A stretch of 51,885 nucleotides of DNA from a bacterium (GTDB taxonomy: Bacteria; Patescibacteriota; Saccharimonadia; CAILAD01; BJGX01), in NCBI GenBank assembly GCA_023261595.1, contig JAHFOQ010000003.1, positions 1-51,885 of the forward strand. Reading direction: 5' to 3'. The notes beneath the pieces are model-generated. The model was not told the DNA's origin, ran no database searches, and was given only the letters and a program-made list of their open reading frames with translations. Below are positions 32,125-51,885 of the stretch, in pieces. Position numbers and translations under genes: made by a program. Each line of letters opens with the position of its first letter. The stretch's first letter is position 1.

Positions 32125-33213
32125 CTAGAATGTTGCGGTACATACATAGGTTAATACTGTAGTGTAAGTACCCGGTGCTTGGGTTCCAGAAACATTAGCC
32201 AAGTAAGACACGGTAAAGAGTCTAAAGCCATCGGCTGAACCTTGCGAGACGGCATTGGTTGCAGCACCTGCTGTAAATGAATACTGGTTCGTAGTATTTA
32301 ACGCAGTGACCGGGTTAGCACTACCCGCCCCTGCTGGGTTGGCACCGAATGAGCTTGGTACGGTGTTGGCAACCATATTCATACCAAATTGCGAGGTACC
32401 CTGAGTAGGCGAGGTTGCTGCCGCACCAATAGAAGCTATCGTGTTACCACCAGAAGTCGGCAAGATACCATTGTAGGTAATAACATAGCCAGTTGAGGCG
32501 TTCGTAGTAACTCCAATTTGAGAGGTACCAGTACCAGATGTACTTGGAGTAAGGGTGCCAAGCGATACACTCGAACCCGTAGCACTTGCACAACTCGAAC
32601 TGGTAATACCTGATGTACCAGTACAGAAAGTGAGCGATTCATCGACCGAAGCAGTAACGGTAATTGCATTAGCGGTAGAAACTGCAATAACGCCTGTATC
32701 AAGAGCATTTGTCCAAGCAGTATCAGAATAGGTGGTCATACGAAGATAAAAAGTGGTATTCGTAGTCGAAGGGTTGGTTACAGCCGTCCAGGGTACTGAT
32801 ACAACTCCAGATGGAGCTACCGCATTAGTCTGAGTAATACGTAATTTGCCAGCTGTAGCAGTATTGTTCGTCCAGCCAGTGTTGGTACCTAAACCAGTTG
32901 TAACACCAGTTGTAGACGAGCCAACACTCGTAAAACCAGCGGGGGTAGAACAAGCACCAGAGGCAGTTGTACAAGCGACGAGTTCAAGTGACTGAACAGC
33001 AGTAGCAGTTGGTAATGCGGCAGTACTGAGAGTATATGTAGTAGACGCGGAGGCAGCAGAACTACCGAGCGTTACTTTACGACTGGTAATTTGAGCGGCT
33101 TGTGTAGTTCCGCTTAAGGCAAATGGCATTATTATTGTTGTAACGGCAAAAACAACAGCTATTACAGACCGGGCGCGTTCCTCTATTTTATTCAACATAC
33201 TTTTATTATTCAC
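32125..33213 (-). CDS. Secreted Thr/Ser-rich WxL/pilin-like subunit, paralog 1
   Basis: Signal peptide ending TQA-AQIT; two beta domains with Cys pairs; C-terminus PGTYTTVLTYVCTATF; AAGGAG SD. Confidence 0.8.
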   Translation of the reverse strand: MNNKSMLNKIEERARSVIAVVFAVTTIIMPFALSGTTQAAQITSRKVTLGSSAASASTTYTLSTAALPTATAVQSLELVACTTASGACSTPAGFTSVGSSTTGVTTGLGTNTGWTNNTATAGKLRITQTNAVAPSGVVSVPWTAVTNPSTTNTTFYLRMTTYSDTAWTNALDTGVIAVSTANAITVTASVDESLTFCTGTSGITSSSCASATGSSVSLGTLTPSTSGTGTSQIGVTTNASTGYVITYNGILPTSGGNTIASIGAAATSPTQGTSQFGMNMVANTVPSSFGANPAGAGSANPVTALNTTNQYSFTAGAATNAVSQGSADGFRLFTVSYLANVSGTQAPGTYTTVLTYVCTATF

Positions 33214-33314: not shown

Positions 33315-34418
33315 TTAAAATGTTGCTGTACATACATAGGTAATAGTGGTGCTATAGCTACCCGGTGCTTGGGTTCCAGAAATATTCGCTAAATAAGAGA
33401 CGGTGAAGAGACGGAAGCCATCGGCTGATCCTTGCGAGACTGCATTCGTTGCAGCACCTGCTGTATATGAATACTGGTTAGTGCTGTTTAATGCAGTAAC
33501 TGGGTTAGCACTACCCGCGCCTGCTGGGTTGGCACCGAAGGTGGTAGGTACGGTATTGGCCTTCATATTCATACCGAATTGTGAGGTTCCTTGGGTGGGT
33601 GTAGTAGCCGAAGCTCCGATTGATGCAATCGTATTACCCCCAGAAGTTGGCAAGATACCATTATAAGTAATAACATAACCAGTTGCGGCATTCGTGGTAA
33701 CACCAATTTGAGAAGTACCAGTACCTGATGTTGCTGTTGTAAGTGTGCCGAGTGCTACGCTCGAACCTGTGGCACCAGCACAACTCGAACTGGTAATACC
33801 AGAGGTCCCAGTACAGAAAGTTAAAAGTTCATCGACTGAAGCAGTAACGGTAATTGCATTGGCTGTAGAGACGGCAATGGTACCGGTATCTAATGGTGTG
33901 GTCCAGGCAGCATCAGAATACGTTGTCATTCTAAGATAAAATGTTGTATTCGTTGCAGTTGGATTTGTCACCCCACCCCAGCTAATTGCTACTGCTCCAG
34001 AAGGAGTGGTTGCATTGGCGGCATTCAGTATTCTTAAACTACCTGCAGTAGCAGTGTTAACCGTCCAGCCAGAACCCGCTCCAACACCAGAAGGTTGAGC
34101 AACCAGAGTCGAAGAAGAGTTAACAAACCCCGACGGTGTAGAACAAGCGCCCGAGGCAGTTGTACAAGCAGTAAGACTCACAGACTTTATAGCTGTGCCT
34201 GTTGTTGGGAGAGCTGCGGTTACAAGATCGTACTGTACACTCGCAGCAGCTCCAGCAGAATTAGAAAGAGTAACTTTACGGCCGGTAATTTGAGCGGCTT
34301 GCGCCATATTAGCCCAAGCAAACGGTGAAATAATTGCCGTCAATACAAAAAATATCAACAATAGTATAGATGATCTTTGTTGCCGTACTGCATGATTATG
34401 AGTAAACATGGTCTTCAA
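33315..34418 (-). CDS. Secreted WxL/pilin-like subunit, paralog 2
   Basis: Closely similar to 32125-33213; ends PGSYSTTITYVCTATF; start uncertain (TTG 34418 or ATG 34409). Confidence 0.8.
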   Translation of the reverse strand: MKTMFTHNHAVRQQRSSILLLIFFVLTAIISPFAWANMAQAAQITGRKVTLSNSAGAAASVQYDLVTAALPTTGTAIKSVSLTACTTASGACSTPSGFVNSSSTLVAQPSGVGAGSGWTVNTATAGSLRILNAANATTPSGAVAISWGGVTNPTATNTTFYLRMTTYSDAAWTTPLDTGTIAVSTANAITVTASVDELLTFCTGTSGITSSSCAGATGSSVALGTLTTATSGTGTSQIGVTTNAATGYVITYNGILPTSGGNTIASIGASATTPTQGTSQFGMNMKANTVPTTFGANPAGAGSANPVTALNSTNQYSYTAGAATNAVSQGSADGFRLFTVSYLANISGTQAPGSYSTTITYVCTATF

Positions 34419-34509: not shown

Positions 34510-35256
34510 TTAATATGTGCCAACGACAATGAATGTCTGGCTTCCACTATAACTACCACCAGGAGTCGCAATGGCGATATTTGCTATGTAAGAAATAGTA
34601 AAATCTGTTCGTCCTGAGGTTTTAGTAGCATTAGCAATCGTGTTACCCGAAACATATTTGTATTGATTCGTAGTATTGTAGCCAGTTGCAGCAGTACCAT
34701 AGCTGAATGAACTACTTGGTACCTGTACGGGTGCAGCGCCAAATGTGGTTGGTGAAGTATTAGCGGCTAAATTTATACCGAATTGTTCCGTTCCAGCCGC
34801 AGATGCTGTTGGTGAAGATAGAGCGGTCAGATTATGAGCACCATTATTAGGGCTATTCCCAATAACCTGAACAATATATCCATAGCTTGTGTAATTTAAG
34901 ACGCTAAAAGTAGCTGTACCTGTAGCTGTCGAACCAGTTGTAAGAGTTCCAAGTGATACACTCGAGGTATTAACAATAAATGATAAGTTGGGATCGTTCG
35001 TCGTTGTATATCCAGATTGGGTTTGATATGCCGTGCCGGCTGCATCACCTACTCCTACCGCCCCTATACTATCTTGTGACTGATAGCTTGCCGAGGACGA
35101 ATCGATAACTCCTCCTGCACCAAAAAAATCTTCTTGTATTTGAAAGCTCGACGAACTTGCAGCCATTAAGGCCAGTGGTTGCATACCATACACTACTACC
35201 GAGAAAACGAATACCACTACAATACGCAAGATTTTAGTAAATATATTTATAGACAT
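34510..35256 (-). CDS. Secreted WxL/pilin-like minor subunit
   Basis: Shares the C-domain motifs SSVSLGTL, QFG.N..ANT.P.TFGA, N.TNQY, SY.ANI; ends GSYSGSQTFIVVGTY; start reassigned to ATG 35256. Confidence 0.75.
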   Translation of the reverse strand: MSINIFTKILRIVVVFVFSVVVYGMQPLALMAASSSSFQIQEDFFGAGGVIDSSSASYQSQDSIGAVGVGDAAGTAYQTQSGYTTTNDPNLSFIVNTSSVSLGTLTTGSTATGTATFSVLNYTSYGYIVQVIGNSPNNGAHNLTALSSPTASAAGTEQFGINLAANTSPTTFGAAPVQVPSSSFSYGTAATGYNTTNQYKYVSGNTIANATKTSGRTDFTISYIANIAIATPGGSYSGSQTFIVVGTY

Positions 35257-35303
35257 CCCATCATTATAATTCATTGCTACTGCTTATGCTATAATCATCA
35301 TAA

Positions 35304-36221
35304 ATGAACAAATCGATACGCCACTCGATTCAAACGTTATTTGTTTTCCTGCTTGTTGGATTATGTGTTCTTCCCTACACATCATATGCAGCTATTCAAA
35401 CTCAGTCGGGCTCAGTAAGTATAAATAGTATTGTTCCAGGCCCACCTCCTTCTACCCCTCCAACTATTGATACACCTACACAAGGGCAAAACTTTGATAC
35501 AAAAAATATATCTGTTGGTGGTGGATGCATTTCTAGTTTACTTGTAAAAGTATTTGATAATAATGTATTTGCCGGTTCAACATTATGTCAAAATGACGGT
35601 ACTTGGAGCTTGCTCGTCGACCTTAATATTGGACGGAATGACTTAATTGCTCGACAATATGACACGCTAAATCAATCGAGCCCTGATTCTGACACGGTAA
35701 CTATGTACTATGTTCCTCCTTCAATAGCTCCAGTTATTCCAGGCGATTCCACCACTCCTCAGATTCAGGTAGCAGAGTTCGAGTTAAGAATTAATTACGA
35801 CTACACTGTAGTAGGTATTTTTCCGGGGCAACCATTTCGATTACCTATAAGTTTCTATGGTGGTACTCCTCCTTATGCCGTAAGTATAGACTGGGGAGAT
35901 GGTTCGACAAATCTATATAGTCGAGGAACAGAGAAAGAGTTTATAACTGAACATACTTATAAAGACCCTGGTTATAAAACCGTTACAATTCGGGTTACTG
36001 ATGCGCTTGGTAACACTGCCTATGTTCAGTTTGTTATTGTCGTGAATGGTAAAGTAACTTCTCCGTTTAATCTTTCTTTACTACAGGGTGGAAGAATAGC
36101 GATTGCTTGGCCAGTCATTGCTCTTACCATTGGTTTAGGTACTGGGATGGCTGGAGGTATTTTATTTGAACGTCACTACCTTGTTCGAAAACGATCCAAG
36201 AAAACTAACAGAAAAAAATAG
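35304..36221 (+). CDS. Membrane-anchored Ig-like/PKD domain protein
   Basis: Signal peptide, Pro-rich linker, Ig-like domain, GGTPPYAVSIDWGDG...HTY..PG...VTD PKD motif, C-terminal TM and basic tail. Confidence 0.85.
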   Translation: MNKSIRHSIQTLFVFLLVGLCVLPYTSYAAIQTQSGSVSINSIVPGPPPSTPPTIDTPTQGQNFDTKNISVGGGCISSLLVKVFDNNVFAGSTLCQNDGTWSLLVDLNIGRNDLIARQYDTLNQSSPDSDTVTMYYVPPSIAPVIPGDSTTPQIQVAEFELRINYDYTVVGIFPGQPFRLPISFYGGTPPYAVSIDWGDGSTNLYSRGTEKEFITEHTYKDPGYKTVTIRVTDALGNTAYVQFVIVVNGKVTSPFNLSLLQGGRIAIAWPVIALTIGLGTGMAGGILFERHYLVRKRSKKTNRKK

Positions 36222-36279: not shown

Positions 36280-36954
36280 TTGGCAAAGACAATTTCAGCA
36301 TGGCAAAAGCTCGAGCGTGTGTTTATTGAGCATAGCAATATTCAAAGATTTCATAAATCTGAAGTAATCGTAACTCAAGGCGAATCAATGAACAATGTGT
36401 ATATGGTTCGTGAAGGACTTGTTCGTAATTATGATATTAACGATGCTGGTCAAGAGAGTACTATTTCTTTCTTAAACCGGTATAATATATTTCCTCTTTC
36501 ATGGTTACAATCAAGTGAAGACCACAAATCATTATTTTATTATGAATCTTTTAGAGATACTACCTGTTATATAGCCAATCACAGCGAAATACTTAAGTAC
36601 GTTTATAATGATAAAGAAATACTCACTTTTTTAACTCAAACAGTAAACCGAGCATATATGAACCATAGTGGAAGAATACTAAACCTTATGCACTCTCGGT
36701 TACATGAAAAGATAGAATATGCGCTATACTATCTAGCGATACGTCTCGGAGAAAAAGAAAACAGTATCTATACTATTCCCTACTCATTCAGTCATGAAGA
36801 CATTGCGAAACTGGTTGGTGCAAGCCGTGAAGCCGTCTCGCTCGAGATTGCACAATTTAAAAAAAGTGGACTTTACACTAAAGTGGACCATTGTATAAAG
36901 GTGGATATCTCTAAATTTGACTATGAAAACTACGCAAAGCAGTTTGAAGTTTAG
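36280..36954 (+). CDS. Crp/Fnr family transcriptional regulator
   Basis: cNMP-binding-like N-domain (QGE...VYMVREGLVR), HTH SHEDIAKLVGASREAVS; TTG start. Confidence 0.92.
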   Translation: MAKTISAWQKLERVFIEHSNIQRFHKSEVIVTQGESMNNVYMVREGLVRNYDINDAGQESTISFLNRYNIFPLSWLQSSEDHKSLFYYESFRDTTCYIANHSEILKYVYNDKEILTFLTQTVNRAYMNHSGRILNLMHSRLHEKIEYALYYLAIRLGEKENSIYTIPYSFSHEDIAKLVGASREAVSLEIAQFKKSGLYTKVDHCIKVDISKFDYENYAKQFEV

Positions 36955-37028: not shown

Positions 37029-37070
37029 TGTAATGGTTATTACAGAATTAAACCTCTTATACTGTATAAT
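37029..37070 (+). promoter_or_regulatory. Candidate class II Crp-family activated promoter of the giant adhesin
   Basis: Palindrome TGTAAT-GGTT-ATTACA (37029-37044), 20 nt before TATAAT (37065-37070); no consensus -35. Confidence 0.6.
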
Positions 37071-37107: not shown

Positions 37108-40100
37108 TTGCAGATAAAGGCCAAAACCTGGATTTCCAGAAATAAGCTGTCATACTTCAGCTCTCATAAAGCCAGTTTTATAATTGGTTTATTTGTCGTA
37201 TTTGCTGTTTTATCAACGCTTATTTATACAAATTATTCCCCTAAGAAAGCACAAGCAGCTGCGGGTATAAACGAACAACTTAACTATCAAGCCCGATTAC
37301 TTGATAGCACCGGTGCAGTTGTAGCTGACGGTACCTACAATATGGAATTCAAAATTTATCAAGATGGTACCGGCTGTGTAAGTGGTGGTTCTCCCCCTTG
37401 TAGCGGTACCCTTAAGTGGACAGAAACTCGCACTAGTACCAATAAAGTTACCGTAAAAAATGGTTATTTCTCGGTTAACTTAGGTTCGGTTACCGCTTTT
37501 AGTACTAGTGTAGACTGGAACCAAGATACACTCTGGTTGAGTATAAACATCGGCGGTACTGGCTCTCCAAGCTGGGATGGTGAAATGACACCTTTCCGTC
37601 GCCTTGCTGCTGTACCGTATGCTATGAATGCCAAACAACTTGGAGGGCTCGATTATTCACGCTTTGTTCAACTCGCTCCTACTGCAGTACAGGTGGATAG
37701 CGGAACACTTAGCTCAATTTTTATAAACAAGACCGGTGCAAGTGGCAATATTTTGCAGCTACAAAAAAATGGTACAAACGTACTTACCCTTGATAATGCT
37801 GGTGTGGTAAATTCAAGCTATACTTCCACTTCTTCCACTGCGGGATTAGAGATTGGTTCAATTTGGACCAACACCGATACAGGAGCTGTTACCACAGGGA
37901 CCGACGATACCAGAGGTATGCTTGTAAGTGTGTCGAGAACAGGAGGTAGCGGATCTGCAGTACTTAATACATATGGTGTTTATGGACTTGCACAAGGTGA
38001 CACTGGTGGGACAAGTACTGTAATAGGGGTGGCTGGAATCGCTGTATCTGGAGATGTAAATTATGGAGTAACAGGACTAACACTTGTTACTGGTAGCGGT
38101 CAAACAGAGGCAGTTGGTGTATTTGGAAGTATTGCATCTTTTGCAGGCTTTACCGGAACACAAACAACCACGAATGCTCTGAAAGCCCTAGTTGATATAA
38201 GTACTGCAGGAACTTATACTACTGCTTCTGGTCTTTCAATTGAAACATCAACACTTAGTGGTGGTGGCACTATTGGTACAAATTATGGTGCATGGATAAA
38301 AACTCAGACAGTAGGTACAACAAATTATGGTCTGCGAGTAGATACTGCTGCAGGTGCAGGCACAAACCAAACTGTCTGGATTGCCGGCAATGATGCAAGC
38401 GCCACAACTGCAGCTAAAGGTATCGCATTTGGCAGTACCAAAGATGTTACTTTGTATCGTGGAGGTGCAACTACACTCCAGACCGATGGTTCATTTTTAA
38501 CGGGTGGACGTGTTGCAGTAAATTCAATCGGTTCACCAGGAACAAATGAAATATTTCGAGTCAATACTCCAAACACGGTAGATAATTCAACCATAGCAAT
38601 TATTACCAATACCGGTACAAATACAAATAAAGTACTTACCTTGCAAGGAGTAGCAGGGCAATTTGCAGCATATCTATCTAACCAAACCAGTGCTGGTACT
38701 ACTTTATCTAGTATTGATCTTCTTGGTAGTTTTCGTGCACCTTCTGGTACCAATACGACTCCTGGGTTAACTTTTCAAGCAGAAAATACTTTAGGCCTGT
38801 ATCGTGTTTCATCTGGTGTACTCGGTATTACTGCCAATGCAGACGTTGCACAATTTAGCTCAACCGGTCAAACACTTACCGGTGATTTTACTTTTACTAC
38901 TGGTGCAACTCGTACAATTAGTCTTGGTACCTCAACTACTGGCACTGGTAATACTCTCACAATTCAGGGAGCGACCGGGCTAGCGGCTGGACCAAATGCC
39001 GGTGGTATTGTTTCTCTAACTGGGGGAACCGGTGGTTCTTCAACCGGGCTTGGGTCTGGTGGTGCCGGTGGTGCAGTTAATATATCTGGTGGTGCAACGT
39101 ATAGTAATAACTGGGTTGGTTCAGTAGGTGGAGCAGTAAATATAAGTGGAGCTACGCCAATTGCATCTGTTGTTGCAACAAGTTCTACGGGCGGTGCACT
39201 AGTGCTTACTGCTGGCACCGGTGGTGCAGCGAGTGGCTTTGCATCATCTGGCGGGGGTGCTGGTGGTGCTGTATCTATCACTTCAGGTAGCGGTGGGGCT
39301 GCAGGTGGTGGCGGAGACAAAACTGGTGGTAATGGCGCCGGAATTACCCTAACTGCTGGAAGTGGCGGTGTAAGTATAGGGACTAACGCAAACTCTAATG
39401 GTGGAAGTATTACCTTCCAAGGCGGTAGTGCTGGTACCGGAGGTGGTGGTGCTGCAGGTACACCCGGGAATATCAATCTTCAGGTAGCAACCAACGGAAA
39501 TATTAATGTTGGCGCGAATGCGGTTGCCCAAACGGTAAATATCGGTAATGGTACTGGGGCTACTGCAGTTTCGGTATTATGCGGAAGTGGTGCCTGTGGG
39601 TTTGGTAATAATGGTGTTGCACACAGCACTATTATTGGTAGCACAACTGGTGGTTCTATTACCTACATTCAAACCGGCACGGCTGGTCTAAATATTGCCA
39701 ATGATGGAGTATCAAACACTGTACAAATTGGTAATGCTAATACTGCTTCTTCTCAAACAATAAATATAGGTAATAATGCAAATGCCAGCGGTATAAGTGT
39801 ATTAAATATAGGTTCAGGCCAAAGCTCGAGTGCAACAACTATTCAAGCAGGTTCTGGCGGTTTATTCTTGGGTACTGCTGGCATCTCTAATACCATTCAA
39901 ATTGGTAATACAACTGGTGCTGTAGCTCAAACTATCAATTTTGGTACCAATAGTACTGGTAGTTCTACAACGAACATCAACATCGGTTCGAGCATTGCAG
40001 GTACCACAGCAATTACAGGACCTACTACCATTACTGGACGTACATCTGGTGCATTAGATACACTAACTGTCAGTAATTCCACAAGTACAGGTTCTATAGC

Positions 40101-43100
40101 AATCTTTAAAGACGGTTCTACAGCTGTTATGACAATCGCAGACGGTGGTGGAATACTTTTGCAAAACCAAACCAACTCAGCGGCTGGCTTACAAGTAAAA
40201 GACAGTAGTACTGAAGTTCTCTTTAGTGTTGATACGACTGCTCGTGGTGCTGGTGGCGGAAACTTAGTAAAAATCGGAAATAGCACCGGTACAGATACAG
40301 CAACTACTATTCTTAAATTAGATGCCGCAACTGCGGTACCAACAACTAATCTTGCTGCATTAAATGGCGGTATGTTCTATAACTCTACAACTAATAAAAT
40401 AAGTGTTATAGAAAATGGTACGGTAAAAGTATTATGTAATACTACCGATGCAGGATGTGGTGCAGGTGGTGCTACTACCCTTCAAAGTGCTTACGATGCA
40501 ACATCCGGAAATACTATTACTACAACAGACGGGCGTAATATCGCCTTTACCTTTGCTGACACAACTACAGATTCTAGTTTTATCGTAAACCTCCAGTGTG
40601 TTACTTCTTGTAGTACAAATGGTGTGTTTGCAGTGCAGTCTGCAGGTACTAATGTATTTACAGTATCTCCTAATGGCGGGCGTGCGACCTTCAGAAACGT
40701 TACTGACTCTACTACCGGGCTTCAAATACTGGATGCCGATGGCGGCACACCGATATTTAATGTAGATACTACAAATGAAAGAGTTGGTATAGGTACTGCA
40801 GCACCAAACGCGATTTTTGAAGTTATTGGAACAGCAACTACTGGACCGGTTGTTAGTACTACTGCAAGCATAGTTGGAACTTCTGGTATTTTTGCTGCGG
40901 GGACAAATATGTCTACTACTGCTTCTCCCTCTGGCCTATCAAGCATTGGTTATTACTTCGGTATCTACAACTCAGTAGATTCTGGATCGAGCAATGTTGA
41001 TTCATCTATTTTAACAAGTATTGCAACACAGGCAATCTACAACGGCGGTGATACACTAGCAGGATTAGAAGGGATTAGGGTATATCTAGAAAATGGCACC
41101 GGTACGATAACTACCTCGACTGGAATATATGTATCGACCGGGAGTAATAGCGGGACAATTACCACACAATACGGCATCCTTGTAGCTTCACAGGGAGGTG
41201 GAAGTAGTAGTTATGGAATAGCTATCGATACAGCAGGTACTCAATCACTATGGCTACAAGGTAATGGAGGAACAGCAGCTACTGGTATTGGATTCGGTAC
41301 ATCGAATGACACAAATCTGTATCGATCTGATGCTAATCTATTAAGGTCTGATGATTCCTTGCATATAGTAAATAGAGTTCAAATAGGTTTAGATGCAAAT
41401 GTAGGTACTATTGCCCAGTGTAATGCACTTATAGGATTTGGTGATTGTAGTAATGGTATAGAAGTAGCAATAGCTAGCACGGAAACTACAAATGTAACAT
41501 ATGGTGCAAGCTTTATCGCTGCTATTTCCCCTTCTGGTGCAACAAATACTGCTGGCAATAAAGGCAGCAATAATGTTTTAGCATTAGTGGGTACACAGTC
41601 ATTTAGTGGTAACAACATTGGTACTGACAGTATTGCAGTTAATGGCACTACAGCAGGTACAGTAACTATGCTGAATGGTGCGAATGGTTTTGCAACTCAA
41701 ACAGGAGCAGGTAGTACCGTAACTACAGCAACAGGTGTCAGAGCGGGTGTTTCTCAAACCGCAGGTACTCTTACGACAGGTATCGCATTAGATGTTCTAG
41801 CAGCAACTGGAACAATATCTGGTAGTAACTACGGAATAATTGTTCGTAATCAAACAGCCGGTGCTACTGACTACGGAATATACATAGAAGATGCTGCCAA
41901 CTATAGCTTAGTACTTGCTTCGAACGATGGTGATGCTGCGAGTGGTATTTCTTTTGGTAGTGTAGCAAGTACACCAGATACTAATTTGTATCGTGGTGCA
42001 GCCAATCAACTTAACACTGATGATGCCTTAAAAATTGGTACTCAAGCAGCAATAGGCTCGGGCGCGAGTATAGCTGCTGGTACTGCACTCTATGTAAACG
42101 AAACCTTCAATAATACATCTGGTGGTGTACAAGGCCAAGAAAATAGAATATTTATTAATGCTGCTTCAGCTTCATCTGCAATTGTTCTCGCAAGCAATTC
42201 TAATTTAACTGTTCAAGGTACCGCGATCAATTATACTGGTACATACCTAGCTGGTAGTGGTGGGACAGTTAATGTTGATACCACTGGTACTGTATCTACA
42301 GCCTTAGGCTCAGCAGGTATTGTAAGTAATCGTCAAGGTGGGACAATTGCAGCTGCGCATGCCCAAAACGGTCTTGTTGTCAACTCTGCCGGTGGTACGA
42401 TTACTGCCGCAACTGCTCTTTGGGGTCAAATACAGAATAACAGTACTGGGACAATTACCGATGGGGCTGGACTCTGGATAGCAGCTTCAACTAATACTAG
42501 CGGCACACTAACAAGAAACTACGGCATATATATAGAAAACCAAACTGCAGGTACTACTGACTATGGGATCGTAATAGAAGATGCCGCAAACTACAGTCTT
42601 TTGCTTGCCTCCAATGACGGTGATGCAGCAAGTGGTATTTCTTTTGGTAGTGTAGCAAGTACTCCAGACACCAATCTGTACCGATCTGCCGCTAATCAAC
42701 TTAAGACCGATGATAACTTCTTAGTACAAACCGCTATCAATTCAACCAATGCTTTTGCAGTAAATAATGCGTCTGGGCTAAATTTGTTAAAAATAGATAA
42801 TAGTAGTAGCAACCCTAGTAATTTGGTGACTAACCCAAGTTTTGAGACCAACACAACTGGTTGGACTGGGCGTACTGGCTGTACACTTACACAAGATACA
42901 TCTAACTTCTATAATGGTGCAGCATCCGGGCTCTGTACAAATACTGCTACTACCAATGCAGGTATGAACTACCCTGTAGCACTTAGTAGTACTACTAGCT
43001 ATAACGTAATTGTGTACGTCAAAACCAATGGCCTACCAATAAGCACCTTAGAAATAGGCCGGGCCGATAATGGTGCCAGTGATACTGCTTGTCTTACTGC

Positions 43101-45873
43101 CCAATCAGTTAATTCAAATGGATGGACAAGATTTAGCTGCTCGTTCACCACCGGTACTACCTCTGGAAGCCCGTATATATATGTAAAACAAACCGATGGC
43201 GTAGCTCGCAACATATACGTAGATGCCGTTGTGTTGCAAACAAGCAGCAATGCCGACTCTATTAATTACCGTGATGGAAAGATTAGCTTTGGTACTAACG
43301 CCATTACTTCTCCACTTGTATTACAAAATGTTCAAAATTCTTCAACTGCTTTTACGGTGAATAACTCAAATGGTGGGCAAGTATTTGGGGTTGATACTAC
43401 CGATCAAAACCAAATTGCCAATCCTAGCTTTGAGGTAAATACTACTGGCTGGGCAGCCAAGGGTGCGGCTACTATTGTTCGTAGCACCTCTCAACAAAAC
43501 TATGGCAATGCCTCACTACTTGTTACTACGACAGCTGCGGCTAATGATGGAGCTCAGTATACATTGCCCAACCCTATACAAGTAGGTCAGCAAGTAACTC
43601 TTTCTGGGTATATTAGACTGAATGCTACTGCCTTTGGCGCTGGTACATTAGTTGGTGGTTATGTAAATGGTAGCGGTGATACTACTTGTGTGCTTGCTCC
43701 AGCAATTTCTGCAACCGTACCGGGTACTACGGGCTGGACGCGCTTTACCTGTACATTTACTGTTGCTACCACCCAAGCTACAGCAGTGTTCTTAAAACAA
43801 ACTGATTCTGTGGCTCGTAGCTTTTACATCGATGCTACTCAACTAGAGAATGGTGCAACTACTACTGCGTATGGTCTTGGACGCATCTCTCTAAGTGGCG
43901 AAGTAATTAACCCTACTACTTTCCGTAATCAAGCTGATACTACCACTGCTTTCCAAGTAGTAAATGCAGCTAATACTACCACGCTCTTTAATATAGATAC
44001 ACTTAATAGTAATGTTGCAATAACTAGTACCGCTACTACCTCTTCGGCTTTAACACTAACAGCAAACAGCTTAACGACCGGTAAGGGTATCGATATTACT
44101 TCTACAAGTGCTACTACTTTAAGTTCAGGAGCACTTATTGGCGTAACAGCTAACTCGGCTACGACTGCAACAGGTGGTTTAGTACAAATAAATGCCAATG
44201 CCCTTACTACGGGCGTAGGGCTTAATCTTACCTCTACTAATACCACCACACTATCAACTGGTGCATTGTTTAGAATTACGGCAAATAGCCTTACAACTGG
44301 TGGTAATGCAGGTGGTGTTGCTCAGATACAGATGAATGCTGCAACAACTGCTAGAGGGCTAAGTATTACATCTACCAGTGCTGGATTAACTTCTGGATCG
44401 CTCTTATATATAAGTACTAGCACTACTGGTGCGGTAGCTACAAATGGCGTTGTGTCGATTAATGCCAGTGGTGCGTATAGCTCAACCTCTAATGCAGGTT
44501 TACTAAATGTTGCTGCTAATGCCACCCTAACAGGTACGCTGGCAAACTTCTCGGCCACCGCACTTACCTCTGGTGTTGCTATTAATGTAGCGGGCCCTAC
44601 TAGCGGATCAACGTTTACTGGGTCATTATTTAACGCATCGACTGCTACTACTGGCGCAGCCAGCAATGGTTTTGTACGCTTCAACTTCTCAGCTGCACAT
44701 ACTGGCAATGGTTTCCAGATAGATGATGCTACAGCTACCGGTACTGGTATGGCAATTAATGCTACTGCTCTTACCTCGGGTACTGGCCTTAATATTGCCG
44801 GCCCTACTAGCGGATCAACATTAACCGGTACACTACTGAATATATCAACAGCCACCACAGGTGCCGCTACCAACGGCTTTGCGCGCTTCAACTTTACTGG
44901 CGCACACACTGGTGTAGGATTCCAGCTCGATGATACGGCTACCACTACCGGTACGGCTATGGCAATAAATGTAACTGGGCTTACTACTGGCACAGGGCTG
45001 AAGATAGCCAATACAACAAGCATATCTAGCGCTGACAACTTAGTGATTCTTACCGGCGGTAATAACGCGGGTGCAGAAACTGGTACACACATTCAGTTCC
45101 AGCGTGCAGACGGTACGGTAATAGGTAGTATTGCCCAAAATGCTGCTACAACTGTTGCCTACAACACCACTTCTGATGCTCGGCTAAAAGAAAATATTAC
45201 TGACACCCACTACGATCTTAATACTGTGTTGGCATTAAAAATTCACGATTACGATTACTTAGCTGACCCTAACCACACACAACTTACTGGTCTTATTGCT
45301 CAAGAATTATATACTCTGTACCCTGGTGCAGTTACCGTTGGCACAGATGCTGTTGACGACCAGGGCAGGCTTACTAATCCATGGTCGATAGATTATGGTA
45401 AACTTACTCCTTTATTAGCCAAAGGTCTACAAGATCTTAATGGCAAGGTAGATGCCTTAGATGCTAAAGTAAATGCTCAACAAGTATCCCAAGGCGTGTT
45501 TAATGGTGGGCTTGTTACTGGCAACATAGAGTTTCAGGCTAACGCAACTTTCGATGCAATTGCTACCTTTAAGGGACAGGCTGTATTTGCTGGTGGTGCT
45601 ACCTTTAATGGCACTGCTACCTTTAACGATAAGATAGTAGTCAGTAGCAATACTGCAGGTACTGTTAAGCTACTAGCTGGGCAAACAAAAGTATCTATTC
45701 AATTTAGCAAACCTTATACTGCTCCACCAATAATCAATGCCACTCCTATAGGTATTATTGCTCCTAAATATGGAGTAACAAATATTACGAAGGACGGATT
45801 TGATATAGACATTGATCCTGCTCAACCAACTGATACACAGTTTAACTGGTTTGCTGTAGAAACGAATCCTTAA
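37108..45873 (+). CDS. Giant mosaic fibre adhesin with S74 intramolecular chaperone domain
   Basis: 2921 aa. N-terminal TM/signal; LNYQARL...GYFSVNLG...LAAVPYA domain; Gly-rich segment; DTNLYR repeats; two NPSFE..TTGW CBM4/9-like domains; TSDARLKENI...GLIAQE...IDYGKLTP; extra C-terminal beta domain. Confidence 0.85.
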   Translation: MQIKAKTWISRNKLSYFSSHKASFIIGLFVVFAVLSTLIYTNYSPKKAQAAAGINEQLNYQARLLDSTGAVVADGTYNMEFKIYQDGTGCVSGGSPPCSGTLKWTETRTSTNKVTVKNGYFSVNLGSVTAFSTSVDWNQDTLWLSINIGGTGSPSWDGEMTPFRRLAAVPYAMNAKQLGGLDYSRFVQLAPTAVQVDSGTLSSIFINKTGASGNILQLQKNGTNVLTLDNAGVVNSSYTSTSSTAGLEIGSIWTNTDTGAVTTGTDDTRGMLVSVSRTGGSGSAVLNTYGVYGLAQGDTGGTSTVIGVAGIAVSGDVNYGVTGLTLVTGSGQTEAVGVFGSIASFAGFTGTQTTTNALKALVDISTAGTYTTASGLSIETSTLSGGGTIGTNYGAWIKTQTVGTTNYGLRVDTAAGAGTNQTVWIAGNDASATTAAKGIAFGSTKDVTLYRGGATTLQTDGSFLTGGRVAVNSIGSPGTNEIFRVNTPNTVDNSTIAIITNTGTNTNKVLTLQGVAGQFAAYLSNQTSAGTTLSSIDLLGSFRAPSGTNTTPGLTFQAENTLGLYRVSSGVLGITANADVAQFSSTGQTLTGDFTFTTGATRTISLGTSTTGTGNTLTIQGATGLAAGPNAGGIVSLTGGTGGSSTGLGSGGAGGAVNISGGATYSNNWVGSVGGAVNISGATPIASVVATSSTGGALVLTAGTGGAASGFASSGGGAGGAVSITSGSGGAAGGGGDKTGGNGAGITLTAGSGGVSIGTNANSNGGSITFQGGSAGTGGGGAAGTPGNINLQVATNGNINVGANAVAQTVNIGNGTGATAVSVLCGSGACGFGNNGVAHSTIIGSTTGGSITYIQTGTAGLNIANDGVSNTVQIGNANTASSQTINIGNNANASGISVLNIGSGQSSSATTIQAGSGGLFLGTAGISNTIQIGNTTGAVAQTINFGTNSTGSSTTNINIGSSIAGTTAITGPTTITGRTSGALDTLTVSNSTSTGSIAIFKDGSTAVMTIADGGGILLQNQTNSAAGLQVKDSSTEVLFSVDTTARGAGGGNLVKIGNSTGTDTATTILKLDAATAVPTTNLAALNGGMFYNSTTNKISVIENGTVKVLCNTTDAGCGAGGATTLQSAYDATSGNTITTTDGRNIAFTFADTTTDSSFIVNLQCVTSCSTNGVFAVQSAGTNVFTVSPNGGRATFRNVTDSTTGLQILDADGGTPIFNVDTTNERVGIGTAAPNAIFEVIGTATTGPVVSTTASIVGTSGIFAAGTNMSTTASPSGLSSIGYYFGIYNSVDSGSSNVDSSILTSIATQAIYNGGDTLAGLEGIRVYLENGTGTITTSTGIYVSTGSNSGTITTQYGILVASQGGGSSSYGIAIDTAGTQSLWLQGNGGTAATGIGFGTSNDTNLYRSDANLLRSDDSLHIVNRVQIGLDANVGTIAQCNALIGFGDCSNGIEVAIASTETTNVTYGASFIAAISPSGATNTAGNKGSNNVLALVGTQSFSGNNIGTDSIAVNGTTAGTVTMLNGANGFATQTGAGSTVTTATGVRAGVSQTAGTLTTGIALDVLAATGTISGSNYGIIVRNQTAGATDYGIYIEDAANYSLVLASNDGDAASGISFGSVASTPDTNLYRGAANQLNTDDALKIGTQAAIGSGASIAAGTALYVNETFNNTSGGVQGQENRIFINAASASSAIVLASNSNLTVQGTAINYTGTYLAGSGGTVNVDTTGTVSTALGSAGIVSNRQGGTIAAAHAQNGLVVNSAGGTITAATALWGQIQNNSTGTITDGAGLWIAASTNTSGTLTRNYGIYIENQTAGTTDYGIVIEDAANYSLLLASNDGDAASGISFGSVASTPDTNLYRSAANQLKTDDNFLVQTAINSTNAFAVNNASGLNLLKIDNSSSNPSNLVTNPSFETNTTGWTGRTGCTLTQDTSNFYNGAASGLCTNTATTNAGMNYPVALSSTTSYNVIVYVKTNGLPISTLEIGRADNGASDTACLTAQSVNSNGWTRFSCSFTTGTTSGSPYIYVKQTDGVARNIYVDAVVLQTSSNADSINYRDGKISFGTNAITSPLVLQNVQNSSTAFTVNNSNGGQVFGVDTTDQNQIANPSFEVNTTGWAAKGAATIVRSTSQQNYGNASLLVTTTAAANDGAQYTLPNPIQVGQQVTLSGYIRLNATAFGAGTLVGGYVNGSGDTTCVLAPAISATVPGTTGWTRFTCTFTVATTQATAVFLKQTDSVARSFYIDATQLENGATTTAYGLGRISLSGEVINPTTFRNQADTTTAFQVVNAANTTTLFNIDTLNSNVAITSTATTSSALTLTANSLTTGKGIDITSTSATTLSSGALIGVTANSATTATGGLVQINANALTTGVGLNLTSTNTTTLSTGALFRITANSLTTGGNAGGVAQIQMNAATTARGLSITSTSAGLTSGSLLYISTSTTGAVATNGVVSINASGAYSSTSNAGLLNVAANATLTGTLANFSATALTSGVAINVAGPTSGSTFTGSLFNASTATTGAASNGFVRFNFSAAHTGNGFQIDDATATGTGMAINATALTSGTGLNIAGPTSGSTLTGTLLNISTATTGAATNGFARFNFTGAHTGVGFQLDDTATTTGTAMAINVTGLTTGTGLKIANTTSISSADNLVILTGGNNAGAETGTHIQFQRADGTVIGSIAQNAATTVAYNTTSDARLKENITDTHYDLNTVLALKIHDYDYLADPNHTQLTGLIAQELYTLYPGAVTVGTDAVDDQGRLTNPWSIDYGKLTPLLAKGLQDLNGKVDALDAKVNAQQVSQGVFNGGLVTGNIEFQANATFDAIATFKGQAVFAGGATFNGTATFNDKIVVSSNTAGTVKLLAGQTKVSIQFSKPYTAPPIINATPIGIIAPKYGVTNITKDGFDIDIDPAQPTDTQFNWFAVETNP
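41828..42714 (+). repeat. Internal duplication in the adhesin gene
   Basis: NYGI...IEDAANYSL.LASNDGDAASGISFGSVASTPDTNLYR occurs twice; 32 bp identical at 41941-41972 and 42631-42662. Confidence 0.9.
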
Positions 45874-45879
45874 CATTAC

Positions 45880-45907
45880 TTGACATACATTTTTAGTGTT
45901 GTACAAT
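45880..45907 (+). promoter_or_regulatory. Sigma70 promoter of ORFan cassette
   Basis: TTGACA-16-TACAAT. Confidence 0.7.
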
Positions 45908-45949
45908 AAGGGTGTAATTGTACCCCCTATACCTCTAAAGGAGGTGAAA

Positions 45950-46237
45950 ATGAGCTTTTGTGAGGCTCTCATTCAGGCACATTCAGACGAATCGACCGAA
46001 CCCGCACTCGTAGCAGATATTCTCTATCTCCTCGATACGTGGCAGAAAATCGAGTCGCTCTCGAATGGTTCGGCTGAACAGCTCAAGTGTATCAACAAGG
46101 CACGTGGGTTGGTCGACGACCTGCGTACAAACTGGCATCTCAGCAACGATGAGATAATCGAACTCGATGAACACACCGCTGAGTTTCGTCAGTGGCTTGA
46201 GCCCCCGTCCATGCAGGAACACCAAGAAGCCAGCTAA
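45950..46237 (+). CDS. Small acidic hypothetical protein (ORFan)
   Basis: AAAGGAGGTG SD before ATG 45950. Confidence 0.75.
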   Translation: MSFCEALIQAHSDESTEPALVADILYLLDTWQKIESLSNGSAEQLKCINKARGLVDDLRTNWHLSNDEIIELDEHTAEFRQWLEPPSMQEHQEAS

Positions 46238-46367: not shown

Positions 46368-49190
46368 TTATTTTTTTAGTAAACGGGCCAAGTAATAACC
46401 GGTGTGACTATTTGTTATTTTAGCGATTTGCTCTGGAGTACCTTCACCTACAATAGTTCCTCCTCCGCTTCCGCCTTCTGGACCAAGATCAATAATCCAA
46501 TCAGCACTTTTAATAACATCTAAATTGTGTTCGATAATTAGTACTGAATTACCCATTGCTACTAATGCATTAAGCACCTCTAGGAGTTTTGCAACGTCTT
46601 CAAAGTGTAAGCCAGTTGTGGGTTCGTCGAGGATATAAAGTGTACGTCCTGTTGCTCTGCGGGCTAACTCGGCTGCAAGTTTAATTCGTTGTGCCTCACC
46701 GCCAGAAAGTGTAGTAGCAGGCTGACCAAGTTTAATATAGCCAAGCCCTACACTATGCAAGGTTTCGAGCTTACGAGAAATAGCCGGAATATTTGCAAAA
46801 AATTTGGCACCTTCTTCTACCGTCATTTCTAACACGTCTGATATATTTTTACCTTTATAGACTATCTCGAGTGCTTCGCGATTATACCGTTTACCATTAC
46901 AAACATCACATGTAACATACACATCTGGTAAAAAATGCATTTCAATTTTTATAATTCCATCACCTTTACAGTTTTCACAACGTCCGCCTTTTACATTAAA
47001 GCTAAATCGTCCTGAACTATAGCCACGTATCTTTGCTTCTGGCACCATTGCAAATAAATCTCGAATATCATTAAATGCCCCTGTGTATGTGGCTGGGTTA
47101 GAACGTGGCGTACGGCCAATTGGGCTTTGATTGATATCAATCACTTTATCGAGGTGCTCCATACCACGAATTTCTTTAAATTTTCCGGTTGGCTCTTGGC
47201 TCCGATGATATTCTTGAGAAAGTTTACGAGCCAAAATATCATTAATTAAGCTCGACTTACCACTACCCGATACTCCACTTACTACGGTCATTACACCGAG
47301 TGGAATTTTAACCGAAACATCTTTTAGATTATGTTCGGTAGCACCAACAATTTCTAAGTACCGGCCGTCTGATTTACGTCGTTTCTGTGGCACTGCCACA
47401 ACTTTTTTACCTGAAAGATATTGTCCGGTAAGTGAATTTTTATTCTTCGCTACTTCGCTCGGTGTACCAATAGCAACAACTTCACCACCATGTTCGCCGG
47501 CCAGTGGACCAATATCTACTACGTAGTCAGCCGCCAAAATTGTGTCTTCGTCGTGTTCTACTACAATTACGGTGTTCCCTACATCGCGCAAACGGCGCAG
47601 TGTTTCGATGAGCTTATCATTATCACGTTGATGTAAACCAATAGAAGGTTCGTCGAGAATATACAGCACTCCCATTAGGCTTGATCCAATCTGGGTTGCC
47701 AATCGAATACGCTGGGCTTCGCCACCGGCTAGTGTATTTGCACTACGTTCGAGCGTTAGGTATCCCAAACCAACATCAAAGAGAAAACTCAAGCGTGCTT
47801 CAATTTCCTTAAGAATTTGCTTCGCAATAATTGTTTGTTGTGCGTCGAGCTTTAAGTTTTTAAAATAATCAAATGCATCAGCTACTGTTAGCTCAGTTAC
47901 ATCTGCAATTGATTGACCAGCAATAGTTATAGCAAGCACTTCTGGTTTTAATCGTTTGCCACCACAACTTTCACATAGCTGAGTAGTCATGTATTTTTCA
48001 ATTTCACGTTTTACAAAGTCGCTATCAGATTCGCGATAGCGGCGCTGCATATTTGGAATAACTCCTTCAAACTTTGTTTTGTAGGTTCTGCCACCGGGGC
48101 CAGGTACACCAATAACTTCTTCGCCAGTACCATAAAATAAGATCTTTTTATCTCTTTCACTTAAGTCTGCTACCGGAACATCTAGTCGGAATTTATGAGC
48201 CTTTGCGACAGATTCGAGCAACTTGGTATACCAACTCATTCGTTGTGTGGTACGACTCCATGGTCGAATTGCACCTTCTAAAATACTGAGTTTTGTATTT
48301 GGCACAATTAAGTCGGGGTCAACAATTAATAACGATCCAAGCCCCATACAATTTGTACAAGCACCGTGCGGAGAGTTAAAACTAAACAGGCGTGGCTCTA
48401 TTTCTGGCAATGCAAAAGCTGAATCAGTAGTTGTGTAGTGTTCAGAAAATAATTGCTCTTCGTTGGTGTCATAATTAATAACATTAATTACTCCTTCACC
48501 AAGGTGTAAGGCAGCCTCTACGGCTTCTACAAGTCGCTGTGGGTTTTCGGTATCGACACTTAATCTGTCTACCGCAATCTCGATAGTATGCTTCTTTTGT
48601 TTGTCTAAATCTGGAACTTCATCAATTTCAATTAACTTACCATCCAGCCGAACGCGAGTATATCCAGCCTTACGAGCTTCATCGAGCAAATGACGATGTT
48701 CGCCTTTTTTATCTTTAACAATAGGTGCCAAGATAATAATTTTGCTCTCTTTTGGATAGTTTTTAATTGTATCAACAATTTGTTGTGGAGTTTGTTTACT
48801 TAGCACTTCACCTGTATTCGGATCGTGCGGAATGCCTACACGAGCATAGAGCAACCGGAGATAATCGTAAATTTCTGTAACTGTTGCTACGGTAGAACGT
48901 GGATTGCGAGAAGAAGATTTTTGATCGATCGAGATTGCTGGGCTTAAGCCTTCTATCTGATCAACATCTGGTTTTTCCATTAAACCTAAGAATTGTCGTG
49001 CATATGCGCTGAGAGATTCTACATACCGTCGCTGACCTTCGGCATAGATAGTATCGAATGCGAGAGATGATTTGCCAGAACCAGAGAGTCCGGTAATTAC
49101 AACCAGCTTGTCGCGTGGTATGGTGAGATCGATATTTTTTAAGTTGTGCTCTCGAGCACCTTTAATAACTATCTTGTCATGCATACTCAT
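46368..49190 (-). CDS. uvrA: Excinuclease ABC subunit A
   Basis: [18 protein letters not shown], two ABC cassettes, [16 protein letters not shown]...CDVC. Confidence 0.98.
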
Positions 49191-49324
49191 TCAATCCTTT
49201 CGTCGAATTTCGACGTAATTCAAGGTTCAATTGTACTCCCTCTGTCAATATTATTCAAGTAGTTACACCTGTTCCTCCTGAGATAATTCAGGTAAAATAA
49301 TAAGCATAACTAAAAAGGAAAACT

Positions 49325-49684
49325 ATGGCAGAAGCACCACGAATAGGCGACCCGAATGATATTAATGCTGGCATAGGCCAAGCAGCATACGAAAGTGCAA
49401 AAAAAGAAATACCAACGGCATACGGGCGAGCTCAGGCTATTGAACCAGGTACACCATCAGCAGACATGATTACTCATGTACCAAGCCAAGAAGAATTAGT
49501 TGCTCAAAAAAATGAGACTTTTGATGCAGAACTAAACCGCATGCAAAATGGTTTAAAAAATTTAAGTGAATACACTGTACCGCATGCCGATGTAGTTCAT
49601 CTTGAACATGTTAAAAAGAATCTAGAGGAATATTTACACTCTCTTGCTAAGATTATCGAAGCTAAAAAAGCAGGTCAGTACTAG
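49325..49684 (+). CDS. Hypothetical protein (ORFan)
   Basis: 119-aa ORF, AAGGA SD, TAAAAT upstream. Confidence 0.65.
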   Translation: MAEAPRIGDPNDINAGIGQAAYESAKKEIPTAYGRAQAIEPGTPSADMITHVPSQEELVAQKNETFDAELNRMQNGLKNLSEYTVPHADVVHLEHVKKNLEEYLHSLAKIIEAKKAGQY

Positions 49685-49687
49685 ACA

Positions 49688-50638
49688 TTATTGGTTAGCT
49701 TGATATTCACGTGCCAGAGCCATAACTGCCTTCCGAGCAGCCTCGCTCATCTGAGACTGTAAAGCTACTTTAAGCTGATCAGCAATAATCGCTAAACTTG
49801 CAGAGTCTGTCACATCACCTCCGGCTACGCCATAACCATCTATTTCTCTAGCCCGTATATAGTATCCATCAGTAGCAGTCGCCCCTTTGAGTTCTTTATG
49901 TGCCACTAGTGCGTCAAGTCGAAATTTATGCCCTTGTACAGTAAATTCAACAGAGGTTAAATCAGTATTTGGCTCGTGAATTTCTGGTTCGCTGTCGTTA
50001 AACATTTGTTGCAGCACTACAATTTCAGCCGCTGGCAATCCATTTTGCAATGCAAATTCTCTCAGCTGCTGATTACGTTCTGTATTTCCCAGCTCAGTGC
50101 CATCTTCTTTTATGCGTATATAGACTCCAGCTATTTTTCCTTTTTCCACATTTACTTGATTGTAATTATCGGTTCGAGTTTCTTCTAGAACACGTCGTGG
50201 ACTAGGAATGACCGCTTGCCTATCCATATCGTTAAGACCCGAATCATACGACCATGCTCCTAAGACAGCTTCATTTTCTGAAGGCGGTTCGATGATAAGC
50301 CCAGACATACCCTCAAACGTCCAAAGATGAGCTTGGTCTATTAGGCTTGTATTGAGAGGTCTGTCGGTCAAAGTAAATTCACCTAAGCCCAGTTGATTTA
50401 CTCTATCCTGAATGTCGAGTGGTGCATGAACCATAAAAGCAAAGTACTCCGTCGGTTCATATCGGCGAGACTCGGGTTTGGTCATATACTCACTGTAAGA
50501 TTCTTTTTTTTCTTTCTCCATATCTGCTCTACCATTCTCCATCCCAGACTTCAACTCGGCATACAGATTACGACGTTCATTATGATGATAAGTGCTATCA
50601 CCAGTTTCGGTCGAATCTTGAATGGACTGCTCGCTCAT
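49688..50638 (-). CDS. Hypothetical protein translationally coupled to uvrB
   Basis: 316-aa ORF with ATGA overlap at the uvrB stop. Confidence 0.75.
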
Positions 50639-51885
50639 TTCTTCCCTATTCTCTTACTACCTACTATTTCTTTAATATCTTCTATCTGATCTCTTAGTTC
50701 TGCAGCCTTTTCAAACTGCAGGTTCGCGGCTGCCAATTCCATCTGTTCATTTAATTGTTTGGTTAGAAATACCAATTCGTCTTTTGGAATTTTACTAAAG
50801 TCTATGTTGGCAACATCTGTTGTTTCTGCTTCGGTTTGTTGGTGCATCGTTTCGGCCAGGGCTTTTTCTACCGTACGCGGTGTAATGCCATGTTTTTTGT
50901 TATATGCTTCTTGCACTGCGCGACGTTCGGTAGTAATTTTTATAGCTCTCTCCATTGAGCCAGTTACTTTATCGGCATACATTATTACTTTTCCTTCTTG
51001 ATGTCTGGCGGCTCGACCAATTGTCTGAATAAGTGAAGTTTCTGAACGTAAAAATCCTTCTTTATCAGCATCGATAATAGCAACAAGGCTCACCTCTGGT
51101 AGATCTAAACCTTCGCGCAATAGATTAATACCTACCAAAACGTCATACACACCTAATCGCAGATCGCGCAAAATATCGGTACGTTCAAACGTATCTACAT
51201 CACTATGTAAATATTGTACTTTTATGCCAATTTCTAATAAATACTCAGTTAGGTCTTCTGCAATTCTCTTAGTTAGTGTAGTAACAAGTGTGCGTTGGCC
51301 ATTTTTGGTTCTTTCTCGAATTTCGGCGATAAGATCGTCTACCTGATGATCACTTGGTCGAACTTCTATAATTGGGTCGAGTAATCCAGTTGGGCGAATA
51401 ATTTGTTGTACTTTTGTTTTACTTCGACTAAGTTCGTATTCGCTTGGTGTTGCAGAAACGTAAATAACTTTATTAATATGTCGTTCAAACTCGGTAAAGT
51501 TTAGTGGTCGGTTATCGAGAGCGGAAGGCAAACGGAATCCATGCTCTATAAGCGTTTCTTTGCGTGCTTTGTCTCCGTTAAACATTCCTCCAACTTGCGG
51601 GATGGTAATATGACTTTCATCAACAAACATTAAATAATCATCAGGAAAATAATCGAGCAATGTAGCAGGCTGTGAACCCGGCTCTCTATTAGTAAGGTAA
51701 CGTGAATAGTTTTCAATTCCTTTAACGAATCCAGTCTGTTCCATAATTTCTACATCGTACTGTACCCTACTTTCTAACCTTTGAGCTTCGAGTAACTTAT
51801 CTTGGCTCTTAAACCACGCCACCCGTTCTTCGGCTTCTTCTTTTATCTGCACTATTGCGCGTTGCAACTGTTCTTTCGGTGTAAC
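50635..51885 (-). CDS. uvrB: Excinuclease ABC subunit B (5' part outside window)
   Basis: [50 protein letters not shown]-terminal UVR domain. Confidence 0.98.

Follow-up and report, generated by a model that had tools for sequence, protein, structure and literature searches.

The stretch of DNA analysed here (the window) comprises 51,885 nucleotides (nt) of contig JAHFOQ010000003.1 from the saccharimonadial assembly GCA_023261595.1, and at 37108-45873 on the forward strand it contains a gene encoding a 2921-residue, phage-like fibre protein. We found that this gene is not that of an isolated adhesin: it has a conserved place downstream of pamR as its partner, and in Saccharimonadia fibre genes of its family are usually the last gene of the Pam pilus operon, situated straight after pamR, a linkage overlooked in a preliminary description of the same DNA. 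The protein begins with a conserved N-terminal domain (the N-domain) that heads a family of fibres found across the Candidate Phyla Radiation (CPR), with bodies and tips that are freely swapped behind it. The reading we favour, with somewhat better than even confidence, is that the protein is secreted by a Saccharibacteria (CPR) episymbiont as a modular surface fibre of great length that is docked to the Pam apparatus and binds host glycans; its predicted role is likely that of a host-attachment protein.

The Pam pilus was described in 2026 in Candidatus Mycosynbacter amalyticus as a filament built by donor-strand exchange (Troman et al., bioRxiv 10.64898/2026.03.03.709456; PMC13278184). In the available text of that preprint, PamT is proposed to occupy the tip and PamR to be a membrane-anchored terminator, and one sentence mentions a “tail fibre-like protein” that is central in the pamA neighbourhood network. 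The window encodes a 305-residue, RbmA-like PamR at 35304-36221 (+), which matches NCBIfam CPR_pilus_PamR with an E-value of 1.3e-75 and 254.1 bits (short of the equivalog cut-off, 300) and has a PKD/FnIII-type domain (Pfam PKD) and a C-terminal transmembrane (TM) segment at residues 265-289. A Crp/FNR-type regulator gene (36280-36954, +; Pfam cNMP_binding, HTH_Crp_2 and Crp) lies between pamR and the fibre gene.

Using the N-domain as the query, we collected 80 loci from species-representative genomes and searched their flanks with the Pam proteins of the window. These loci contain 81 N-domain genes, 79 of which are preceded by at least 1.5 kb of DNA, and in 68 of the 79 a PamR homologue starts 0.8-1.5 kb upstream on the same strand. 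The other 11 comprise three genes with PamR at -1.9 kb and a Crp-like gene in between, one that sits behind another fibre gene (locus L020) and seven with no PamR. In that position the Crp-like gene was matched only in L010-L012 of the 80 related loci, which are the nearest relatives of the window, and elsewhere pamR adjoins the fibre gene; the regulator is a genus-specific insertion into the pair. Most often the genes run pilins, chaperone, pamR, fibre: among fibre genes preceded by 6 kb of DNA or more, pilin or PamT homologues were found in 54 of 57 and a chaperone-like gene, about 2.2 kb upstream, in 53 of 57, and all pilin and PamT matches are on the strand of the fibre gene in 46 of the 54 loci. 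Two loci, L047 and L051, have the PamR-fibre pair without pilin genes nearby. Across 301 sampled genomes of the class, the N-domain occurs in 125 and PamR in 146; they occur together in 121 genomes and are both missing from 151, with 4 having just the N-domain and 25 just PamR. Because related genomes lack independence, these counts describe a pattern and not a statistic.

The N-domain (residues 51-232; 37258-37803, +) was characterised with an alignment of 79 homologues (A1) and an AlphaFold2 (AF2) model. Conservation begins at Ala50, ends at about residue 232 and does not continue beyond it; many columns exceed 95%, 14 are invariant, and the aligned sequences are 47-88% identical to the window N-domain, compared with only 24-75% for the PamR proteins of those loci. 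The model, built from A1, has a mean predicted local distance difference test (pLDDT) score of 77, with model residues 10-125 confident, and predicts a seven-strand, immunoglobulin (Ig)-like beta-sandwich at residues ~54-169, followed by a conserved segment (residues 170-214) that was modelled with low confidence. A Foldseek search with this model returned no match at E<=1e-3, VIA returned generic Ig/FnIII sandwiches (top Z 6.5) and no specific fold relative, and a PDB sequence search with the N-domain profile found no relative. Because neither CPR_Pam_pilin_C nor any profile kinship with Pam pilins or PamR was detected (hhalign of the N-domain gave a probability of 0.2% against the pilin alignment and 0.8% against PamR), the fibre cannot be classed as a donor-strand pilus subunit, and a pilin-type role was rejected.

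The N-domain family is large, and its members differ greatly in length and composition. A word-indexed search retrieved 1,003 proteins with the N-domain, 274-2,000 residues long, for which precomputed Pfam annotations include S74, CBM_4_9, Kelch sets and PF22237, most having no Pfam domain at all. A hidden Markov model (HMM) scan of 1.84 billion representative proteins gave 11,551 matches at E<=1e-3, 3,648 at E<=1e-10 and 1,021 at E<=1e-30; in the 150 best matches, which range from 215 to 5,771 residues, the N-domain is N-terminal without exception. Genomes of the class carry up to nine copies, the maximum being in a genome (G084) with a single PamR match, and the genome of the window carries one. 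A phylum-wide sample yielded weaker matches in 78 of 301 genomes, a tally in which the genome of the window and one unpublished genome are included. Even within the genus, little is shared behind the N-domain: two homologues of 2,018 and 2,294 residues have N-domains 79-82% identical to that of the window, some repeated modules at 36-43% identity and a last stretch of ~125 residues that is 64% identical in both, and they otherwise share nothing with the window fibre. Among 59 full-length relatives, of which the 450 C-terminal residues were considered, Pfam recognised S74 in 3, CBM_4_9 in 6, other families in 4 and nothing in 44, with one weak Peptidase_G2 autochaperone match and one weak H_lectin match. 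Since Pfam S74 occurs in just 3 of these 59 relatives, the window fibre belongs to a minority S74 subgroup. At one locus (L020:3361 and L020:7038), a single pamR is followed by two tandem N-domain fibre genes, whose products are 1138 residues (with S74) and 840 residues long.

The fibre gene opens with a TTG start codon, reads through without an internal stop, and is preceded by a ribosome-binding site (RBS), read from the sequence, of the GAGGG type 6-7 nt 5' of the start. Its product is rich in Thr (16%), Gly (14%), Ala (12%), Ser (10%) and Asn (8%). The leader (37108-37257, +) consists of a basic n-region, a hydrophobic segment at residues 17-44 with a 19-residue hydrophobic core, and an A-x-A site (A-Q-A) at residues 48-50. 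Ala50 of this site is conserved in 91% of 77 aligned homologues, whereas the remainder of the leader is not conserved, and A-x-A|A sites of a similar kind are present in the neighbouring Pam proteins. The leader is therefore probably a Sec signal peptide, with a predicted cut after residue 50.

Between the N-domain and the C-terminal modules, the protein is a mosaic of repeats, low-complexity sequence and carbohydrate-binding modules (CBMs), all encoded on the forward strand. GI.FG...LYR motifs at residues 438, 1393, 1613 and 1843 each end a module of ~140 residues; copy 1 (GIAFG...LYR at residue 438) spans residues ~350-495 (38155-38592), and copies 2-4 span residues 1314-1452, 1517-1675 and 1745-1900 (41047-42807). 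These modules were located by the motif and by BLAST of the protein in chunks, since BLAST of the whole protein against itself gave only the identity match, and they are 37-79% identical in pairs (56-79% for copies 3 and 4). Independent contigs from the probable source run contain the gene in pieces and show no conflict with it, but they leave the repeated modules unbridged and break around the near-identical copies 3 and 4 (41970-42633), so the module copy number lacks independent confirmation. A Gly-rich stretch at residues 601-800 (38908-39507) has 26 Gly per 100 residues in its first half and 36 in its second. The two CBM_4_9 (PF02018) domains, at residues 1904-2027 (42817-43188) and 2105-2245 (43420-43842), were detected as two stretches with an E-value of 1.5e-18 and 67.9 bits (cut-off 25.9), and the second also matches the xylanase CBM chain 4xuo_A (E 5.1e-5, residues 2105-2245). 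Closer to the C-terminus, residues 2429-2638 (44392-45021) form Thr/Ala/Ser-rich tandem repeats of ~70 residues that are 57-70% identical; Tandem Repeats Finder returned 0 rows for the DNA, at which level these repeats are too diverged. The preliminary description had read this architecture correctly: the uninterrupted 2921-codon frame, the hydrophobic leader (as a membrane or signal anchor), the conserved-looking N-domain (near-invariant alignment columns at residues ~48-232), the Gly-rich segment, the four GI.FG modules, the two CBM4/9-like domains and the ~70-residue tandem repeat, which it had placed near 44550-44970, were all recovered, as was the mosaic character of the family, in which one conserved N-domain precedes freely varying bodies.

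The C-terminus combines a phage-type S74 intramolecular-chaperone and self-cleavage module with a lectin-like knob. The S74 module occupies residues ~2661-2792 (45088-45483, +) and is recognised as Peptidase_S74 (PF13884) at residues 2689-2742 with an E-value of 5.6e-10 and 39.8 bits (cut-off 22). The sequence SDARLK at residues 2689-2694 agrees with the SDxxxK catalytic Ser/Lys motif of S74 proteins, as given in the available text of Caulton et al. (PMC10769870). An S74 motif, on whose presence the earlier proposal had been staked, is thus found both by profile and by motif. When the C-terminal sequence was used as a query against phage records, 207 of them matched at 38-40% identity, in query residues 22-153 only, which correspond to the S74 module; tail-fibre ends of cyanophages and pelagiphages are among these matches. 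In two phage genes that we inspected, the S74 match stops 3-7 codons short of the stop codon, whereas in the window ~130 further residues follow; 233 residues lie beyond Ser2689, and they include the knob.

An AF2 model of the C-terminal 282 residues, made from a 20-sequence alignment, has a mean pLDDT of 67 and is poor in its S74 part; it predicts a long helix at residues ~2763-2790, then short beta-helix turns and then the knob. The knob (residues 2846-2921; 45643-45870, +) is modelled with high confidence (mean pLDDT 87-96 per 10-residue block, model residues 211-280) and has an H-type-lectin-like fold according to both VIA and Foldseek (E 8.6e-5 to 2e-3). VIA matched it to the tailspike C-domain of LKA1 gp49 (Z 9.0), the cyanophage Pam1 tailspike (Z 8.6), Discoidin I (Z 8.2), Helix pomatia agglutinin (2ccv; Z 8.0, root-mean-square deviation 1.9 A over 69 residues) and the R2 pyocin fibre foot (Z 7.6). 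The Pfam H_lectin (PF09458) score, 16.4 bits, is under the cut-off of 24, and PDB sequence searches with the C-terminal profile and the S74 stretch returned nothing meaningful. Among 60 relatives, 17 finish in this knob, most of them lacking S74.

Having a knob after S74 is unusual. The knob may be a cap that is shed, or a folding nucleus that relatives without S74 retain. In a 3342-residue relative (L033:18569-19918), a weak match to Peptidase_G2, an autochaperone of the phi29 gp12 type, precedes the same knob, and the self-processing modules that precede the knob may differ between relatives. The genome of the window encodes two more S74 fibres, of 850 residues (C40:7624-10173, +) and 680 residues (C23:1173-3212, -), both with a cytoplasmic N-terminus and a TM anchor and with no N-domain. 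The former ends in the same knob and is 36% identical to the window fibre over residues 2682-2918, and the latter finishes with a coiled coil followed by a tail rich in Pro.

These data allow us to propose how the fibre might be made and used. The protein would be exported by the Sec pathway, with the leader removed after residue 50, and the N-domain would then dock the fibre to a conserved partner in the Pam apparatus. On genomic grounds PamR is the best candidate for that partner, since no adjacency is more stable than that of pamR and the fibre gene; the pilus is the alternative. The S74 module would nucleate trimer folding of a beta-helical shaft and then cleave itself from the shaft at Ser2689. 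Finally, the CBM_4_9 pair, together with either a tip built from the repeats or the lectin-like knob, would bind polysaccharides of the host envelope, in which case this variable part of the protein would set host specificity. Host-glycan receptors have been established for other Saccharibacteria adhesins, PilX1 and PilX2, according to the available text of a preprint (bioRxiv 10.64898/2026.10.06.756255).

Several observations weigh against this proposal. Co-location with pamR can reflect co-regulation only; 25 genomes have PamR and no N-domain; and in more distant families of the class (e.g. G294, G155 and G264) the best N-domain and PamR matches are widely separated or do not share a contig. 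No profile kinship connects the N-domain with either the Pam pilins or PamR, the S74 part of the monomer model has low confidence, and a cut at Ser2689 would shed the knob too, a poor fit to the idea that the knob is the tip that binds the receptor. Localisation, binding and expression of the fibre are predicted from its gene. A complex prediction for the PamR ectodomain (residues 29-262) and the N-domain scored 0.00 and is neutral with respect to docking. An alternative is a Pam-independent surface fibre that has only its location, and perhaps its regulation, in common with the pilus genes and is held by its own uncleaved signal anchor or by binding to the wall, an account that we consider possible although doubtful. 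It would explain the length of the 19-residue hydrophobic core, the position of the A-x-A site 10 residues behind the core, the TM anchors of the two other S74 fibres, which lack the N-domain, and the absence of sequence kinship with Pam subunits; a TATAAT box (37065-37070) and the RBS in the 153-nt gap 5' of the fibre gene could constitute a promoter of its own. A promoter and terminator scan of the region is uninformative in this regard, because it found fewer promoter-like sites than in shuffled sequences. The retention of Ala50 in 91% of homologues within an otherwise variable leader argues for cleavage instead, and the N-domain is conserved far beyond the needs of a spacer, more so than PamR itself (47-88% versus 24-75%). 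Independence from Pam is also difficult to reconcile with the pamR-fibre order in 68 of 79 loci and the presence of PamR in 121 of the 125 genomes with an N-domain.

Other accounts concern what the fibre does or where it came from. It could be a tailspike-like depolymerase, with a glycan-cleaving site that went unrecognised in a beta-helical body and CBMs feeding it polysaccharide of the host wall or capsule, such that it opens the envelope rather than adheres to it. CBM_4_9 domains are commonly found beside glycoside hydrolases, the C-terminal model matches C-domains of tailspikes (LKA1 gp49, Sf6 tailspike and K64-1 S2-4), and ESM Atlas look-ups, which otherwise gave unnamed clusters, produced a weak language-model lead from the repeated module to HylP hyaluronidase (0.86, below the 0.9 mark). 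However, Pfam, NCBIfam and PDB sequence searches of the whole protein found no catalytic family, and the tailspike matches are confined to the terminal knob and do not extend to a catalytic beta-helix; we consider this function unlikely. That the gene is a prophage remnant or cargo, encoding a true phage tail fibre, is highly improbable. Its S74 module is indeed 38-40% identical to cyanophage and pelagiphage tail-fibre ends, and a PHROG scan of the fibre gave a weak tail-fibre match (E 0.0064), but a PHROGs scan of 39 open reading frames (ORFs) of the 52-kb window produced housekeeping look-alikes only, with no capsid, portal, terminase or tail set, and the gene is flanked by housekeeping genes, has a GC content even with its surroundings and occupies the same place after pamR in 68 of 79 loci. 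In addition, a tblastn search with the N-domain found 0 matches in 50,697 phage records. We therefore rejected a prophage origin, in agreement with the preliminary description, which had placed the gene outside any prophage. That description had also called the protein a domesticated tail fibre, which holds for the S74 module and not for the N-domain; the sequences point to a split origin, cellular for the N-domain and phage-like for the S74 module. A bolder extension of the Pam-docking proposal, which we regard as rather improbable, is that the N-domain is a universal plug by which many interchangeable phage-like fibres fit one membrane socket (PamR or the Pam pilus base) of ultrasmall bacteria that have a cell wall, with the S74 subgroup shedding a lectin-like cap by self-cleavage to unmask the true tip or to release a soluble lectin. 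If so, CPR episymbionts would have a new system of surface display, and it would determine their host range.

The “tail fibre-like protein” of the Pam preprint occupies the same position, in or next to the Saccharimonadia Pam operon, and on these grounds it very probably belongs to the same family as the window fibre. The available text of that preprint (PMC13278184) assigns the protein no domains, family definition or role. The closest parallel in organisation is with the S74 subgroup of mosaic adhesive trimer (MAT) fibres of Bdellovibrio, such as Bd3182 (Caulton et al. 2024, PMC10769870). As far as the available text of that study goes, the two share a signal peptide, a conserved beta-rich N-domain without a solved relative (no MAT N-domain was found in the PDB), a long fibre, swapped tips, S74 and non-S74 subgroups, multi-copy families and a bacterium that lives on bacteria. 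The likeness is one of organisation and not of demonstrated descent. MAT fibres belong to another phylum with a different cell envelope, and no link to a pilus operon is described for them in that text; the window N-domain is ~180 residues long, a lectin-like knob comes after S74, and few members of the family have S74 (3 of 59). With phage fibres that carry C-terminal chaperones (K1F endosialidase and T5 pb1), the window fibre shares PF13884, SDxxxK and the 38-40% identity to tail-fibre ends noted above, but its N-terminus is a cellular secretion and anchor domain rather than a virion attachment domain. The last ~75 residues share the fold of the R-type pyocin fibre foot (6cl6; Z 7.6) and H-type lectins (2ccv; Z 8.0), although identity is just 16-21% and the H_lectin score is below its cut-off.

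How CPR and Saccharibacteria episymbionts choose their hosts is largely open, and the only adhesins we found in the literature are minor pilins of type IV pili. A literature search for Saccharibacteria and tail fiber, judged by titles and abstract openings, identified no description of such a protein, and broader searches judged by title gave none either, with PMC13278184 alone mentioning one. The fibre family, phage-like and quick to swap its parts, is linked to a second pilus operon that is specific to the CPR and occurs in ~40% of the sampled genomes of the class, which makes it a concrete candidate for a host-range determinant, with parallels in Bdellovibrio MATs and phage receptor-binding proteins. 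The Pam-operon “tail fibre-like protein” (as a mention) and the MAT concept are already in print; the window contributes a clear example of the S74 type that carries two CBMs, the counts for linkage to pamR, the split origin, the odd S74-then-knob ending and a Crp-type regulator, specific to the genus, that separates pamR from the fibre gene.

The remaining Pam genes of the window are on the reverse strand, such that the block of pilin, PamT and chaperone genes faces the opposite way from pamR and the fibre gene, and the divergent ORFs of pamT and pamR are only 29 nt apart. PamT, the proposed tip subunit (34510-35274, -; 254 residues), matches NCBIfam CPR_pilus_PamT (E 1.7e-90, 302.7 bits, cut-off 240), and two Pam pilins of 367 residues (33315-34418, -) and 362 residues (32125-33213, -) match CPR_Pam_pilin_C (cut-off 55) with E-values of 1.2e-37 (129.3 bits) and 4.8e-39 (133.8 bits), respectively. 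In a 368-residue protein (30968-32074, -), a signal peptide and a beta-rich body are followed by a C-terminal TM helix and a basic tail, and hydrophobic segments lie at residues 4-30 and 284-318. It has no Pfam or PHROG match and only sub-threshold NCBIfam matches; because its architecture fits the description of PamC and PamD in the available text of PMC13278184, it is a candidate membrane-anchored pilus chaperone of the PamC/PamD type.

The genome is 798 kb in 42 contigs and is 93% complete, the window being contig 16, and the probable source run of the DNA is a groundwater metagenome. The loci most closely related to the window elsewhere are named Candidatus Saccharibacteria or Saccharimonadales, which, together with the 0.8-Mb genome, bears out the epibiont type of host that had been proposed for the gene. 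The Pam genes and the fibre gene are flanked by uvrC (29484-30944) on one side and uvrA/uvrB (46368-51867) on the other, and the rest of the window contains dnaE, ligA, gatA/B, nusA and seven tRNA genes. Both uvrC and uvrA are neighbours in L011, and uvrA only in L010; because uvr neighbours were seen in same-genus loci only, the operon lies at different chromosomal places in other lineages. Elsewhere in the window (19279-19845), a LemA/MamQ-like protein of 188 residues matches a PHROG labelled “virion structural protein” (E 4.8e-22), a label that is misleading and no sign of a prophage. Directly 3' of the fibre gene, a small ORF (45896-46237) with no family match encodes an acidic protein of 113 residues, and a counterpart with 56% identity occupies the same place in L011.

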